Source of the DNA: an uncultured Acidimicrobiales bacterium
GTDB taxonomy: Bacteria > Actinomycetota > Acidimicrobiia > Acidimicrobiales > SHLQ01
Reading direction: 5' to 3'
Length of the DNA: 64,000 bases
Assembly: GCA_964451305.1 (NCBI GenBank)
Contig: CAYVHV010000014.1
Coordinates: 345 to 64,344, forward strand
Made by a program: the position numbers and the translations under genes. How positions within the stretch are numbered: the first letter of the stretch is position 1; every line of letters begins with the position of its first letter. This document shows, in pieces, positions 2,485 through 13,805 of this stretch. The notes under the pieces are model-generated. The model saw only the letters and a list, made by a program, of their open reading frames with translations. It did not search any database and was not told where the DNA came from.

Positions 2485-5400
2485 GTGTTTCGTTTTTTTG
2501 TCGATTCGGATTCTGCAGAGCGCGACGATGGTCGCGCCCTCGCGGTGTCAATCGAACGCGAAGATGCAACAATCGCTGACCTTGCAGTCGCGCTCTCGCT
2601 GCCCGAATCGGCGCTCGTCATCGACGGCGTCGTCCACCTCGCCGAAGTACGGCTGAGCGAGGTGTCGTTGGTCGAGGGGTCGCGCGTGAGTCCCCTGGGC
2701 CCACGCCAAGCCACCCGCTCGGGCATTGGTCGGTCATGGGTTGGAGTGGCCGGTGGGCCACATGCTGGCGTGGTCAAGCGCATGGACGCCGACGGATCGG
2801 TCACGATCGGCCGCGGTTCGATGAACGACCTCGATATCGACAACACGAGCGTCTCGGCGGTCCACGCAGTCGTCGAGAAGCGAAGCTCGGGAATGACCGT
2901 CACCGACCATGACTCGACGAACGGCACATGGGTGAATGGTCGGCCCATCACAAAGACCACCTCGCTGGCATCTGGACAACCGGCGCGAATCGGCTCTTCG
3001 ATCGTCGAGTTCATCGAGATTGATTCGACAGACAAACCGCTCGCTACCAGCGTTGCTCACGCCGAGACCGCTGGTCGGGTGTTGTTCAATCGGCCGCCCC
3101 GCGGACCGGTCGCACGAGCCCCGGACCTCGTCGCCGTCCCCGAAGCACTGCCCGAGCGAGAGAACCCAACGCTGCGGCTCGTTTCGCTACTCGTTCCGAT
3201 CCTGCTCGCCGTCGTGATGGTCGTTGCATTGGATTCGTTCCGGTTCGCACTCTTCGCGCTGCTTTCACCGTTGATGGTTCTCGGCAATTGGCTCTCGAAC
3301 CGACGCACGGTCAAGAAGGAACGAAGCGGCGATGTCGGGAATCGTCGATCGGCGCTCCAGAAGCTCCGCAAAGAGCTCGAGCACGCCGAACGCACAGAAC
3401 GAAACCGGCGTAGTCAACGCGGTCCGGGCTTGCTCGAAGTTCGTCGACGGATCGAACTGCCATCGAATCGGCTCTGGGAACGGCGCCTCGATGCCCCCGA
3501 CGCGCTCACCATGCGACTCGGCATGGGAACCGTGCAGTGGAGTCCAACGGTGACCCCGCAAATAGATGGTTCGAACGACGAGGATCGTGACGAAGAACTC
3601 GACGAGATCTTGTCGGGGGTGACAACCCTCGATGACGTTGAAGTCCTCACCGACCTTCGCGTCGGACCCATTGGATTCACTGGCCACATGGGTGACGCGC
3701 GCAACGCTGCTCGATCCGGGGTTTTGCAGCTCGCAACACATCATGGACCGGCCGACCTCGACATCACGATCCTGACCACTAGCGACAACCTCGAGGACTG
3801 GCGTTGGGCGCAGTGGCTACCGCACACCACCGACAGTAATGGTGGGCTACGAATCTTCACCGACGATCAGCACGTCGACTACGTGGCGCGCCTTCTCGAG
3901 AACGCTGACGAACGCAAGCGTGACACCGACGCCGCTCTCAACCCGGCCGTTCTGTTGGTCGTCGACGACCTCGATGCGCTGCATCGCAAGTCCAGTCCGC
4001 TCCGTCAACTGCTCGAGCGCACCGAGCAAAACATCTTCGCGATGGTTATCGCTCCGGTGCGCGACCAGCTGCCTGCCTCGATAGCAACCGTGATTCACGT
4101 CGATGGGGTCGATGGTGAGTTCGAGCTAACCCGACCATCGGACCCAGCCATCCATGAGACCGGGATTATCGACGGCCTCTCCAGCGAGGTCGCGTCCGAT
4201 ATTGCGCGCTCGATGGCCCGCTTCGAAGACCCTGAACTCGAGTCGGCAGGAGGGGCGTTGCCAGCACGAGTTACCGCGCGTGACATCTTCCCAGAATCGA
4301 TGTTCGACGACATGGCCAGTGATGCCGTCACGCGACGCTGGATCTTGGGCACTCGGGGCAACGAGCTGACGATGCCCATCGGAATCTCCGAAACCGGTCT
4401 GTTCACGGTCGATCTCATCGACGACGGACCCCATGGATTAATCGCTGGCACCACCGGAGCTGGAAAGTCAGAACTTCTCCGGACCGCCGTGCTTGGAATC
4501 GCCACCAACCATGGTCCAGACGACGTGGTCTTTGTGCTCATCGACTACAAGGGCGGCTCAGCATTCGACGCATGCGCGGCACTCCCACACGTCGTGGGGG
4601 TTGTGACAGACCTCGACGATCACCTCGCCGAGCGGGCTTTGCAGTCGCTCGAAGCCGAACTTCATCACCGAGAATCCATGCTCCGCCGGGCATCGATGGC
4701 CGACATTGGCGAGTATCGGGCCTCGGGATCCACAGACGGGCCACTTCCTCGCCTGGTCGTCGTCATCGATGAATTCGCAACCTTGCGCAGCGAACTTCCA
4801 GAATTCGTCAAGTCCCTCGTCGGCATCGCGCAACGAGGGCGAAGCCTGGGCGTTCATCTCATCCTCGCCACACAACGTCCGTCGGGAGCCGTCGACGCGA
4901 ACATCCGCGCTAATACGAACCTGCGGATTGCACTGCGAGTGCAAGACGCCTCAGATTCAACCGACGTGATCGACGATCCTCGTGCCGCCAGAATTTCGCG
5001 CACCGCTCCGGGACGCGCCTATGTTCGCCGCGGCGATGGTGACGTCGCAGCAGTACAGACCGCATACCTTTCCGGCTCGGCCGAATCCGACGGCCCAGCG
5101 GTGCGGGTAGGAGAGATTCTGCTCGGGGGATCACCGCCAGCCTTCCCGCTCGACCCTCCCGGGGGAGAAGACACCGATCTCCAGCAGCTGGTCGACACGA
5201 TTTGTCGTGCAGCCATCGATCACGACGCGCCTCGACGACCGTGGCTCGAAGAACTCCCATCACATATTGCTGACCCTGAAGAACTCCGGTTACTCGAAGC
5301 AGGCGACAACGCCCACGTCGTTCTCGCCGTTGGAGATGACCCGATGCAACAGCGTCGCGTCACCCGCGGTTGGAACCTCGACGATGGGAACCTCGCTGTT

Positions 5401-6690
5401 ATTGGAAAGGCTGGGAGCGGAGTAACCACCGCGCTACGAAGCGCCATTACGGCGCTCGGCGCAGCCCAGAACGATCGGCCGCTGTGGGTATTTCCTATCG
5501 ACCACGGCACGGGTGGACTCGACGGAGTCGACAGCTTCGCGCACGTCTCGGACCTCATTGCCGGAACCAGCGAAGCGCGTCAGGCACGACTGCTTCAGTT
5601 TCTCTCGACGACGCTCGACGAACGCCGGGCCCAACAGGGAAACCTCGGCGACCTCCCATTGATCGTCGTGGCGATCGACGGATGCGGCCCCTTTGGCGAC
5701 GCCAACGACGTCGAGTCGGGAACAGCGAATGGCGAGTTGCTCGCCCGCATTAGCCGCGATGGCCCGATGGTCGGGATCTACATGATCGTTGGTGCTCGCT
5801 CTGAGCAAGAAATCCCGCGTCCGATGCGCCGGTTCTTCCACCAGACGATCGTGCTCGAGCAATCAAATCCCCGTTCGTACGCTGATCTGGGAATCTCCAC
5901 CAAGAATCTTCCGACCTTCGTGCCGGGTCGGGCGCTCTTCGACGCAACCCCGATGGTCGCCCAGATCATCGACTGGGAATGGTCAGCGCGCAACGGAGCT
6001 GTCGAGGTCACAACCGTGACCGAACCGCCATCGATGGATGGCCTCGCACGCGATATCGGACGAAGCGGGCTACCGGCGGCCAAGATCGACCATGACCTCA
6101 CCATCCCGTTCGGGATGTCCGACAACACCCGCGCTGCGGCCACCCTAAAACTCCGAACCGGAGAACACTGCCTTATCGCCGGTCCGAGCCGAAGCGGCCG
6201 CACCAACACCCTTCGTGTCATCGCATCCCAATTGCGCGACGCCGACCGGTCACTCGTTCTCGTCGGGATCACCCCGTCCTTTGGATCACCGCTGCTCTCC
6301 GAAGGTGTCTTCGATGCGGGAGGAAGCCCAGAGGACCTCGAGAAGGTGCTCCAAACCAGTGGTGAAGAAGAGCGTCGTTGGGTCATCCTCGTCGATGATG
6401 CGGATGGATTCGATCTCGAGAGTGGTGCCCTGTACGAGATTGCTCGCAAGAATCCGGCAAACGTGACCATCATTGCGGCGGCCCGATCGTCGAGCCTTCG
6501 ACAGAGCTACGGGCATTGGACCCGTTTTGTGCGTGCCTCAGGCACCGGAATTCTTTTGCAACCCGATCCGTCGCTCGACGGGGAACTCCTCGGCGTCCGG
6601 CTCCCTCGAGGGCAACGCTTCGACGACATTGCCGGGCGTGGCTATCTGGTTCGTTCAGGCAACACCGAGATCGTCCAAGTCGCGCACTGA
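2485..6690 (+). CDS. EccC/EssC-like FtsK/SpoIIIE ATPase with N-terminal ubiquitin-like and FHA domains (type VII secretion motor)
   Basis: FHA (IGR..SVSAVHA..STNGTWVNG), two TM helices, LWERR, D1 GTTGAGKS/VVIDEFA/RGRSLGVHLILATQRP, degenerate D2 GKAGSGVT and D3 GPSRSGRT. Confidence 0.9.
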   Translation: MFRFFVDSDSAERDDGRALAVSIEREDATIADLAVALSLPESALVIDGVVHLAEVRLSEVSLVEGSRVSPLGPRQATRSGIGRSWVGVAGGPHAGVVKRMDADGSVTIGRGSMNDLDIDNTSVSAVHAVVEKRSSGMTVTDHDSTNGTWVNGRPITKTTSLASGQPARIGSSIVEFIEIDSTDKPLATSVAHAETAGRVLFNRPPRGPVARAPDLVAVPEALPERENPTLRLVSLLVPILLAVVMVVALDSFRFALFALLSPLMVLGNWLSNRRTVKKERSGDVGNRRSALQKLRKELEHAERTERNRRSQRGPGLLEVRRRIELPSNRLWERRLDAPDALTMRLGMGTVQWSPTVTPQIDGSNDEDRDEELDEILSGVTTLDDVEVLTDLRVGPIGFTGHMGDARNAARSGVLQLATHHGPADLDITILTTSDNLEDWRWAQWLPHTTDSNGGLRIFTDDQHVDYVARLLENADERKRDTDAALNPAVLLVVDDLDALHRKSSPLRQLLERTEQNIFAMVIAPVRDQLPASIATVIHVDGVDGEFELTRPSDPAIHETGIIDGLSSEVASDIARSMARFEDPELESAGGALPARVTARDIFPESMFDDMASDAVTRRWILGTRGNELTMPIGISETGLFTVDLIDDGPHGLIAGTTGAGKSELLRTAVLGIATNHGPDDVVFVLIDYKGGSAFDACAALPHVVGVVTDLDDHLAERALQSLEAELHHRESMLRRASMADIGEYRASGSTDGPLPRLVVVIDEFATLRSELPEFVKSLVGIAQRGRSLGVHLILATQRPSGAVDANIRANTNLRIALRVQDASDSTDVIDDPRAARISRTAPGRAYVRRGDGDVAAVQTAYLSGSAESDGPAVRVGEILLGGSPPAFPLDPPGGEDTDLQQLVDTICRAAIDHDAPRRPWLEELPSHIADPEELRLLEAGDNAHVVLAVGDDPMQQRRVTRGWNLDDGNLAVIGKAGSGVTTALRSAITALGAAQNDRPLWVFPIDHGTGGLDGVDSFAHVSDLIAGTSEARQARLLQFLSTTLDERRAQQGNLGDLPLIVVAIDGCGPFGDANDVESGTANGELLARISRDGPMVGIYMIVGARSEQEIPRPMRRFFHQTIVLEQSNPRSYADLGISTKNLPTFVPGRALFDATPMVAQIIDWEWSARNGAVEVTTVTEPPSMDGLARDIGRSGLPAAKIDHDLTIPFGMSDNTRAAATLKLRTGEHCLIAGPSRSGRTNTLRVIASQLRDADRSLVLVGITPSFGSPLLSEGVFDAGGSPEDLEKVLQTSGEEERRWVILVDDADGFDLESGALYEIARKNPANVTIIAAARSSSLRQSYGHWTRFVRASGTGILLQPDPSLDGELLGVRLPRGQRFDDIAGRGYLVRSGNTEIVQVAH

Positions 6691-6847: not shown

Positions 6848-6886
6848 TGAAACGTTACAACGCGTAGCGTCGTACTACGAAGGAGA
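6848..6886 (+). promoter_or_regulatory. Candidate ECF-type promoter and RBS upstream of the WXG100-like gene
   Basis: TGAAAC-N17-CGTA (6848-6874), then AAGGAGA 8 nt before ATG 6895. Confidence 0.4.
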
Positions 6887-6894
6887 GTCTTCTC

Positions 6895-7395
6895 ATGGGT
6901 GCATCGTTTATTGGCGGCAATCTTGAATCGTTGGGTCAGGTAGCAACGCGGTTGCATGAATCTGGTGACAAGGCACTGCAAACAACCGATGGAGCGCACG
7001 CGGCAGCGCAGCGATTGACCGAAGCGATCGATGGGTCCATGGGCGAGCTCCTCACACAATTTGGAAACGTGGCGGGCGACCTCAGTGCCGACATTTCCCA
7101 GGCACACGAGCAGTTGCGGGCAGCCGACTGGCAGGGATCGTCATATGAGAACGCGGTCACGATCAAGGGCGACCTTCAAGCGCAGGTCGAACGAGTGCTC
7201 GCTGATGCCACCGCGAACTTGGAGGCCGAAAAAGTTGCGTTCGTCGGGCGAGCTGAAGCCTTGGTGGAGCAGGTGCAAGTGCAGTTCGGCGCGGTGATGG
7301 CGAACGTTCAAGGTGAATACGCGGCACTGGCCGATGCGTCAACTCGCACCATGGAGAATCTCGAAGCTGCCGATCAGACGATTCGCCTCGGGTGA
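6895..7395 (+). CDS. Elongated WXG100-like helical hairpin protein
   Basis: Ala/Gln/Leu-rich, proline-free, apparently all-helical; central WQG at residues 79-81; C-terminal ENLEAADQ; no signal peptide; directly downstream of the EccC-like ATPase. Confidence 0.72.
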   Translation: MGASFIGGNLESLGQVATRLHESGDKALQTTDGAHAAAQRLTEAIDGSMGELLTQFGNVAGDLSADISQAHEQLRAADWQGSSYENAVTIKGDLQAQVERVLADATANLEAEKVAFVGRAEALVEQVQVQFGAVMANVQGEYAALADASTRTMENLEAADQTIRLG

Positions 7396-7596
7396 ATCGG
7401 TCGACGGGTTGTCAGGAGTGACCGCGCGGTAACCAGTCGCTATATCGGCTGAGCGCTCAGCCCGTTTCGATTTGTCGATGCGTAGAAATTGGCAGACGGA
7501 TGATTTGCCAAATGTCACACTTACCGTGCTACTTTCCGAGTCCACGTTCCCCCATTGTCGGGGAACCTATTGAAACTCTTGGGGGAGGGCCCACGC

Positions 7597-12344: not shown

Positions 12345-13805
12345 ATGAAACGAATGCGTTGGTTGGCATTGATTGCCATCTTCAGCCTGTTGGCGGTCGC
12401 ATGTAGCGCTGCCGAAGAGGCCGCCGAAACTGCGACAGATGCCGCAGGCGAAGTCACCGAAGAGGTCGAAGAGGCCGTCGACGGTGATGATGACGAAGAA
12501 GAAGAAGCCATGGAAGACGAAGAAGAAGAAGCCATGGAAGACGAGGACGGTGAAGAGGCAGGCGGCGACGTCGTTCCTGCGAGCACCGACTTCGGCGCAA
12601 ACGACGAAGCCATTCGCGTTGGGCTGTCCGCTGACCTCTCCGGACCATTCGCTGGTCTCACATCGGTCATCGTTCAAGCCCAAGAGGCCTACTTCGATCG
12701 TGTGAACGAGAACGGTGGCATCGGCGGACGTGAAGTTGAGCTGGTAACGCTCGACAACGCGTACGAGGTTCCAACCCAGCTCGACAACTATGCAGAACTC
12801 GCCGAAGAAAGCGAAGACGGCGTGGTCATGATCAGCCAGTCGACCGGCTCACCACACACCACTGCAATTGCTGAGGATCTCGAGAACGACGACCTCATCG
12901 CAATTCCACTGTCGTGGTACTCCGGTTGGGCAACCGAACTCGGTACCAACGTGTTCGAGCTCTACACCAACTACTGCTTCGAAAGCATGAACGGCGTTGA
13001 GTTCCTCGCCGAGCAGTCCGGAATCGACTCACCAACCGTCGCTATCGTCTCTCGCCCAGGCGAGTACGGACAGGACGGCGCAGCAGGAGCACGAATCGCA
13101 GCTGAAGCTCTCGGCCTCGAAATCGTTGTTGACCTCGAAGGCGCAATCGCTGGTGAAGACTTCACCCCGGTCATCTCCGAGCTGGTCGCCGGATCACCAG
13201 ACATCGTGTGGATTACCTCCGCACCTGGTGAACTCGCACAGATCCTCGGCGGCGCAGCGGCAGGCGGCCTCCAGGCCCTCTGGTCAGGTAACTCACCGAG
13301 CTACAACGTTGCGCTCCTCGATACCGCAGTTGCACCTGCCCTCGATGCGTTCTACTTCCACAGTTCATATGCAGCACTGTGGGACTCGAACGACTCCCCA
13401 GGCATGCAGGACATGGTTGCTGAGCTTCAGGCTCGTATTCCAGACGGAAACTTCGCCCAGGCCGACACCTACGTGTTGGGTTGGACCGAAGCAATCTTCA
13501 CCGAAGCTGTGCTCCAGCAGGCAACCGACAACGGTGACCTGACTCGTGCAGGCGTCGTTGCAGCAGCCAACGAGGTCGAGGTCGACTTCCAGGGTCTCGC
13601 TCCTAGCCAGACCTGGCAGGGCGATCCAAACGACTTCGCTATCCGTGCAAGCTTCATCTACGACGTCGTGCTCGCAGACGCCACCATCACCGCACCGATC
13701 ACCGGTGAGGGCTCGAGTGGCCTCTCTGTTGTACGTGACAACTTCACCGGCGACGTAGCCGCTGGATTTGAATTCACCGAGGCCTGCTTCCTCTCCGAGG
13801 GCTGA
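12345..13805 (+). CDS. ABC transporter substrate-binding lipoprotein (LivJ/PBP1 family) with acidic linker
   Basis: Lipobox LAVAC, DLSGPFA, NENGGIGGREVEL, GSPHT; GGGAGG RBS. Confidence 0.9.
   Translation: MKRMRWLALIAIFSLLAVACSAAEEAAETATDAAGEVTEEVEEAVDGDDDEEEEAMEDEEEEAMEDEDGEEAGGDVVPASTDFGANDEAIRVGLSADLSGPFAGLTSVIVQAQEAYFDRVNENGGIGGREVELVTLDNAYEVPTQLDNYAELAEESEDGVVMISQSTGSPHTTAIAEDLENDDLIAIPLSWYSGWATELGTNVFELYTNYCFESMNGVEFLAEQSGIDSPTVAIVSRPGEYGQDGAAGARIAAEALGLEIVVDLEGAIAGEDFTPVISELVAGSPDIVWITSAPGELAQILGGAAAGGLQALWSGNSPSYNVALLDTAVAPALDAFYFHSSYAALWDSNDSPGMQDMVAELQARIPDGNFAQADTYVLGWTEAIFTEAVLQQATDNGDLTRAGVVAAANEVEVDFQGLAPSQTWQGDPNDFAIRASFIYDVVLADATITAPITGEGSSGLSVVRDNFTGDVAAGFEFTEACFLSEG
12492..12544 (+). 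repeat. 24-bp in-frame tandem repeat (about 2.2 copies) encoding DEEEEAME
   Basis: gacgaagaagaagaagccatggaa at 12492 and 12516, partial third copy at 12540. Confidence 0.9.

Follow-up and report, generated by a model that had tools for sequence, protein, structure and literature searches.

A long WXG100-type hairpin with 36 extra residues in each arm, the probable EsxA-like substrate of a minimal type VII system in Acidimicrobiales

We focus here on a 166-residue protein encoded at 6895..7395 (+) in a 64,000-nucleotide stretch of DNA from an uncultured Acidimicrobiales bacterium (the window). The protein probably serves a minimal type VII secretion system, organized around the ATPase encoded upstream, as its EsxA-like core exported substrate, and we favour an exported core substrate because the Asp of its export motif is invariant and the gene lies in the slot of EsxA. 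Its likely equivalence to EsxA draws on its translation, its homologues, a structural model and a gap scan. Profile comparison supports its descent from the WXG100/EsxA proteins, as a preliminary description of this DNA had proposed, with 36 residues added to each arm of the hairpin.

An AAGGAG ribosome-binding site, read from the sequence, lies at 6880..6885 (+), 9 nt ahead of the ATG. Translation of 6895-7395 (+) bears out the features first described, namely the complete lack of proline, FIGGNLESL at the N-terminus, ENLEAADQ near the C-terminus and a central W79-Q-G81 motif (7129..7137, +), which falls in the predicted inter-helix loop (residues 77-81). Searches for homologues returned 9 close matches and 64 that are more distant, the latter at E ≤ 0.001 in a representative library, and conservation was counted over the 66 of 74 collected proteins that are 150-190 aa long, the 8 outside this range being left out. 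W79 is kept in 65/66 of these full-length homologues, G81 in 66/66 and D160 in 65/66, the sole exception being a truncated record; 62 of the 66 are 162-171 aa long, and every one has at most one proline. The W, G and D are near-invariant although overall identity among the homologues is 22-35%, and, on this pattern of conservation, the reading frame is that of a conserved family and not a chance one. The preliminary description had staked its interpretation on a WxG conserved at the turn, and this is what the homologues and the predicted loop contain.

Searches of Pfam and NCBIfam gave no WXG100 match (PF06013, TIGR03930) for the 166-aa protein. Across the family, PF06013 matches 30/64 members at E ≤ 0.1 (best 2.3e-7) and TIGR03930 matches 23/64 (best 1.2e-7), tallies that were made without bit scores, so that the top-scoring member could lie close to the cut-off; the suggestion that such proteins escape the standard WXG100 models is supported. 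Because Pfam and NCBIfam leave the family unnamed, these systems are missed in annotation. Under a strict definition of WXG100, the long hairpin falls outside on its length, about 100 residues being expected, and on the PF06013/TIGR03930 cut-off; it has the central WxG at the turn, the predicted two-helix hairpin and the linkage to an ATPase. It lacks the architecture of LXG, PPE and WXG-toxin proteins, in which a helical N-terminal domain is followed by a C-terminal effector. Of the 64 family matches, 63 are shorter than 190 aa, the one long match being a repeat protein without a matching WxG, and no fusion of the long hairpin to a C-terminal effector was found among 7992 longer candidates, which is weak evidence. 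No promoter match was found at the hairpin gene, one terminator-like stem at 7447-7462 equals chance expectation, and three RNA runs compared with the region gave just three short fragments of <90% identity, none on the hairpin gene.

To trace where the extra length comes from, we compared the long hairpin with WXG100 proteins of the same order and phylum, 29 of them classical (~97 aa) and 34 short (~88 aa). Each of these sets includes one protein from a genome flagged as unpublished (G664, G708), on which no claim depends by itself. In the gap scan, the tryptophans were anchored and the best single gap per arm was sought between the short profile and a 92-row long profile. Against the 88-aa short subtype, this places 36 residues in the N-arm, within helix 1 (~residues 20-55; 6952..7059, +), and 36 in the C-arm, within helix 2 (~residues 89-124; 7159..7266, +), the edges being approximate in both cases. 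The 36/36 result is unchanged after dropping the first two columns and four doubtful rows, and column shuffles reached the gap-scan score in 0/60 trials in either arm. Against the classical 97-aa proteins, the gaps are 34 (N-arm) and 37 (C-arm), and the proposed symmetric extension of both arms by ~33-36 residues therefore stands. HHalign gives 95-97% for the long hairpin against the short subtype and 70-79% against the classical set, and three separate hairpin segments match short WXG100 profiles. On the strength of the gap scan and HHalign, we thus regard the start, turn and end of the long hairpin as WXG100-type and the middle of each helix as the addition, whose length is fixed across both long-hairpin clades. 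The earlier idea that each extension consists of about three 11-residue repeats holds in part: the C-arm is fitted by 11-residue repeats (adjusted R2 of 0.46 vs 0.03 for 7), but 36 residues correspond to ten turns of 3.6 and not to 3 x 11. The hydrophobic period of the arms is 3.57-3.65. Internal duplication was considered as the source of the inserts and is unsupported, self-similarity giving no clear peak at lag 36.

The C-terminus carries L156-x-x-x-D160-x-x-I163 (7360..7383, +), which aligns with the classical YxxxE and would form the hydrophobic-xxx-D half of the export motif. In an alignment that leaves out two truncated proteins (A2), D160 is kept in 64/64 members and all 64 have L, F, I or M at position 156; an offset of 37 relative to the classical profile puts L156 on the Tyr of YxxxE. 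The published WXG100 C-terminal pattern is HxxxD/ExxhxxxH (PMC3935865), to which L156, D160 and I163 correspond, the chain stopping ahead of the last H. In Streptococcus intermedius EsxA the motif is VxxxD, and its Asp is reported to be indispensable for the export of EsxA itself and of every LXG toxin (PMC13355648). Furthermore, YxxxD/E itself is carried by 26/29 classical WXG100 proteins but by just 2/34 of the short ones. Leu in place of Tyr, to which the preliminary description had drawn attention, is thus ordinary, given a consensus of hydrophobic-xxx-D/E, the VxxxD precedent and the scarcity of YxxxD/E among the short relatives. The 15 sequences of clade 2 end in LxxxMN or similar, without LxxxD, and match (score 0.96) an Atlas cluster made up of 80 proteins of 162 aa that are labelled 'hypothetical'.

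AlphaFold2 (AF2), run with a 64-row alignment, yields the two-helix hairpin expected of the monomer, with helices at 10-76 and 82-165 and WQG in the loop at the turn (pLDDT 88, pTM 0.64); the predicted helices are ~100 and ~125 Å long. A Foldseek search of this model against the PDB gave no match at E ≤ 0.001, and among the matches listed the only type VII entries are chains of TelA-LapA3-LapA4 (rank 6, E 0.09, TM 0.47). Homodimer prediction gave an ipSAE of 0.24 against a mark of 0.42 and, its controls not having been folded, counts neither for nor against self-pairing; covariation over 92 sequences is dominated by the clade signal and gave no contact register.

Upstream of the hairpin gene, 2485..6690 (+) encodes a 1401-aa EccC/EssC-like membrane ATPase (PF01580 and PF00498, with strong but sub-cut-off matches to TIGR03928/03924). 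It comprises a ubiquitin-like domain, an FHA domain (106-167), a hydrophobic membrane segment (~228-262) and FtsK domains, of which D1 has intact Walker A and B motifs, and these motifs are conserved. The N-terminal ubiquitin-fold domain, YukD/EsaB-like and fused to the ATPase (2485..2700, +), is assigned from three lines of evidence: profiles of the first 70 residues match ubiquitin-like PDB chains (best E 4e-5), PF08817 (YukD) is recognized in 4/23 ATPase homologues, and an AF2 model (pLDDT 81) has ubiquitins as its top Foldseek matches, none of them at E ≤ 0.001. The same fusion is seen at the N-terminus of 22 aligned homologues. Such a fusion is plausible, since the YukD of Bacillus subtilis, a separate protein, is described as gripping the ATPase at its FHA and DUF domains (10.1101/2025.01.24.634720), and fusions of FHA to EccC are reported in Actinomycetes (PMC13622651).

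This is the single EccC/EssC-like ATPase found in the genome, a 956-aa FtsK-family frame on another contig being taken to be FtsK itself. The accessory parts searched for, EccB and EccD (PF05108, TIGR03920) as well as EssB/YukC and free YukD (PF10140, PF08817), were not found in this 94% complete genome by searches whose controls were all detected. PF06013, LXG (PF04740) and PF25547 likewise gave no match in the genome. Within the genus, the loci consist of the ATPase and the hairpin set among housekeeping and transporter genes; in the window, 12345-13805 encodes an ABC substrate-binding lipoprotein of the branched-chain type, whose N-terminal region contains an acidic EEEAME repeat, part of a conserved transporter operon downstream of the hairpin gene.

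The hairpin gene is present in 26/26 genomes of the genus, with one full-length match per genome, and the ATPase lies within 1.5 kb upstream of it in 21/24 genus loci examined; in the remaining three, the ATPase is ~8 kb away, a contig edge intervenes, or none is seen. A broader profile finds the full-length long hairpin in 24/301 genomes of the order, belonging to 8 families, and in a few genomes outside the class; 3/27 order-level matches, of the tandem type described below, and weak class-level matches without WxG (L034, L038, L040-L042) were left out. The ATPase type occurs in 118/301 sampled Acidimicrobiales genomes. It is present in 23/24 of the long-hairpin genomes of the order, none of which (0/24) has a PF06013 match, and a PF06013 match is found in 44/95 of the other ATPase-carrying genomes. 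We take this pattern as support and not as proof, because kinship among the genomes makes the counts non-independent, scoring was limited to the top candidates of each genome, and some short proteins go unrecognized by PF06013. The latter is evident in two genomes (G030, G031) that carry a short-subtype protein without a genome-level match, and 0/24 therefore does not show that short hairpins are absent.

Gene order shows the long hairpin in the slot that is filled, in two sister genera (L202, L203), by a short WXG100 protein of 89-100 aa directly ahead of the ATPase. In other genomes, this slot is taken by a 195-aa protein in which two short hairpins are fused (HHalign 92% and 84%). Such tandem proteins of ~195 aa (L046:9911-10495, L113, L114, L115, L116, L119, L120) consist of a YFG turn unit, a Pro-rich linker and a WxG turn unit, adjoin the same ATPase type in 6/7 loci, with proteins of >1500 aa alongside in two, and resemble in their sequence a natural single-chain EsxA pair. 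Four loci with the same ATPase type (L201, L205, L207, L213) have no recognized WXG hairpin nearby, L201 containing a 96-aa WHG-containing gene on the opposite strand with no Pfam match; more hairpin variants may thus exist beside such ATPases. Among the long-hairpin loci outside the genus, the ATPase lies within the fetched stretch (up to 20 kb) in 12/26, a further 7/26 show a small helical gene, behind which a large gene lies in most cases, and 7/26 have no clearly recognized type VII neighbour, the partner profiles having been built from the same loci in which they were counted. In an ATPase tree (FastTree, 70 rows), the long-hairpin ATPases form about three groups among the short-hairpin ones, a pattern compatible with a single origin as well as with several.

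The genome also encodes a second WxG hairpin, of 145 aa, on another contig (C8:81874-82311), whose core matches the short subtype with an HHalign value of 84%. It is found in 25/26 genus genomes, and its homologues sit inside the ATPase loci of other genomes. The region L241:2874-5480, corresponding to G000:C8:81874-84480, holds this HTxxTWEG hairpin gene, which in most genus loci is followed by a gene for a coiled-coil protein with a signal peptide and a weak match to the SLT_2 transglycosylases; this protein is a possible wall-opening partner of the system.

A candidate cargo is encoded on a third contig (C82:1702-4308, within the region L266:1289-4308), an 868-aa putative polymorphic toxin with a C-terminal bacterial EndoU domain above cut-off and, directly behind it, a small overlapping gene that is a putative immunity gene. 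The N-terminus of this protein matches large proteins in the ATPase loci of other genomes (E 2e-5), and over 291 aa the protein shares 35% identity with the product of the large gene that neighbours a long hairpin in G566. Its N-terminal region is found in 15/26 genus genomes, often in several copies and on reading frames with unlike C-termini; up to 14 matching segments occur in one genus genome. Pfam named a C-terminal domain in 1/11 toxin-like homologues, a weak JAB/DUF4329 match below cut-off. Judging by these sequences, the proteins appear to be a family of polymorphic toxins whose trafficking domain is in the style of type VII secretion, a link that we infer. Many of the toxin frames (L267-L291) share the same few codons at their beginning, just upstream of the toxin starts, read as FHVM, FHIM or FRVM, which suggests a conserved regulatory or recombination sequence.

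In the mechanism that we propose, two copies of the long hairpin would pair head to tail into a four-helix dimer, as known EsxA proteins do (PMC3935865, PMC13355648), so that the WxG tip of one copy would meet D160 of the other to form a bipartite export signal. The equal inserts would preserve this dimer geometry and lengthen the rod by ~54 Å; the S. intermedius EsxA dimer is described as ~100 Å long (PMC13355648). The ATPase, with its ubiquitin-like, FHA and EccC parts, would export the dimer, and this export would activate the machine for polymorphic toxins encoded at other sites, among them the EndoU protein, which may travel with small partner hairpins such as the 145-aa protein. Pairing, export and toxin licensing by the long hairpin are proposed by analogy, and toxin export is indeed reported to depend on prior export of EsxA, the dependence being shown and its reason not (PMC13355648). 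The system is predicted to deliver antibacterial toxins in Acidimicrobiales. A stronger version, in which the two genes are the whole machine, the ATPase uniting ubiquitin-like assembly factor, FHA sensor, membrane segment and motor in one chain, and the exported dimer, stretched by its fixed inserts to a rod of ~150 Å, spans or gauges the wall, replacing the missing accessory proteins, we consider unlikely.

The conserved 145-aa hairpin counts against a self-pairing core substrate, as it could be a heterodimer partner. Further points against our reading are the clade-2 C-termini, the long-hairpin loci outside the genus in which no ATPase or no clear type VII neighbour is seen, and the Foldseek result against the PDB; the order-level counts, moreover, draw on just 8 families. 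The long hairpin could instead be a targeting partner of the Lap/TapA/PE-like kind or half of a heterodimer, pairing with the 145-aa protein or with the helical domain at the N-terminus of the toxins; its long rod would then contribute the hydrophobic-xxx-D portion of a composite signal. We judge this rather unlikely. The near-universal presence of the 145-aa protein in the genus and of its homologues in ATPase loci elsewhere is in keeping with it, as are the clade-2 long genes, which lie directly ahead of a small helical gene, in many cases with a large gene as well, and the type VII Foldseek entries, whose complex is a rod of ~180 Å (PMC10801868). Genome G269 has two long-hairpin paralogues in tandem (L047:9003-10071), followed by a small helical gene and a 451-aa protein, and this pair is likely a heterodimeric version. 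However, the long hairpin is single-copy in the genus and linked to the ATPase and not to the toxins, whose number varies widely; it replaces the short WXG100 in loci that retain their own small partner gene; and monocistronic WXG100 genes are reported to yield homodimers (PMC3935865).

The preliminary description raised the possibility of a structural or conduit element rather than a normal substrate, for which we find no positive evidence, the invariant Asp and the EsxA slot favouring an exported substrate. As a conduit or ruler, exported rods would stack or polymerize across the wall in place of missing EsaA/EccB-type parts, which is compatible with the negative outcome of the searches for EccB, EccD, EssB/YukC and free YukD, with the constancy of the insert in both clades, as a length-setting part would need, and with the filaments and channels described for EsxE/EsxF (PMC7810871). 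Yet loci that are just as small pair related ATPases with 88-aa hairpins, so an architecture of this kind can do without the extra length; furthermore, the export motif is strictly kept, and the hairpin sequence has no evident membrane segment or anchor. We thus regard a conduit as improbable. Very improbable, and largely refuted already, is an apolipoprotein-like or other coiled coil with no relation to type VII secretion, in which the WxG would be incidental. The commonest weak Pfam and PDB sequence matches are indeed apolipoprotein-type (52/64 members) and Atlas feature matches for the 166-aa protein are generic (<0.9), but the former are all below cut-off and reflect amphipathic helices, apolipoproteins and designed bundles from the PDB sequence search having been rejected as composition matches. 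Against this stand the three near-invariant residues in a divergent family, the three segments that match short WXG100 profiles, and linkage to the ATPase that recurs in families outside the class (G866, G916).

An exported, EsxA-like substrate can be compared with known systems at several levels. The EsxA/YukE homodimer of T7SSb (sagEsxA-like; PF06013, TIGR03930) shares the WxG turn, the C-terminal hydrophobic-xxx-D and a gene beside an EccC/EssC ATPase; it is ~90-100 aa long, whereas the long hairpin has 166 aa and a 36-residue insert per arm and is matched by neither model. T7SSb has EssB/YukC and a separate EsaB/YukD, and T7SSa (ESX) has EccB and EccD, parts for which the hairpin genome gave no match. 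Closest are the short 87-93-aa Acidimicrobiales WXG100 proteins, which share the I/L-G-A/G-x-L start, the T/D-W-x-G turn, the slot and the ATPase type and differ by the absence of both inserts. T7SSd, as described in PMC11217815, is alike in being from Actinomycetota, in having an FHA-bearing ATPase with conserved FHA motif residues and in its single WXG100 gene; it is defined there by a kinase (TsdD), TsdH and TsdI in the locus and no ubiquitin-like protein, whereas the hairpin locus, compared at the level of the locus only, consists of two genes, and its ATPase carries a fused ubiquitin-like domain. The N-terminus of the T7SSd ATPase may deserve the same check for such a domain. T7SSe-j are placed in Bacillota in that account (PMC11217815). 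LXG proteins with their Laps, PE/PPE and EspB likewise form long helical rods with a composite export signal, the TelA-LapA3-LapA4 complex being the example (PMC10801868); LXG domains, however, have about nine helices and need Laps, whereas the long hairpin is a stand-alone two-helix protein without an effector domain. The mobile module of a solo WXG protein and a YueA-like ATPase has the same minimal set of a hairpin and an FtsK-type ATPase; it is reported from proteobacteria, PVC, cyanobacteria and bacteroidetes, and of its three ATPase domains just the middle one is active; the available text describes no long hairpin and no fused ubiquitin or FHA part (PMC3482391). The hairpin locus thus fits none of T7SSa-f, from which it is set apart by the descriptions in PMC11217815, whose supplements may list such ATPases. 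The long hairpin apparently has an EsxA-like function yet lies outside WXG100 in the strict sense on length and model score, in a stripped-down system that is apparently undescribed; in the open-access literature, we found nothing on the family, on type VII secretion in Acidimicrobiia or on Acidimicrobiales WXG100 proteins.

In these bacteria, one ATPase type is thus found with three natural versions of its putative substrate: a hairpin of 88 aa, a protein that fuses two such units, and the form whose arms are each 36 residues longer. These natural variants could reveal whether the motor reads the ends of the rod alone or also its length. If the two genes were indeed to constitute the whole machine, they would make up the smallest type VII system that delivers toxins and offer a natural experiment on what the length of EsxA does.
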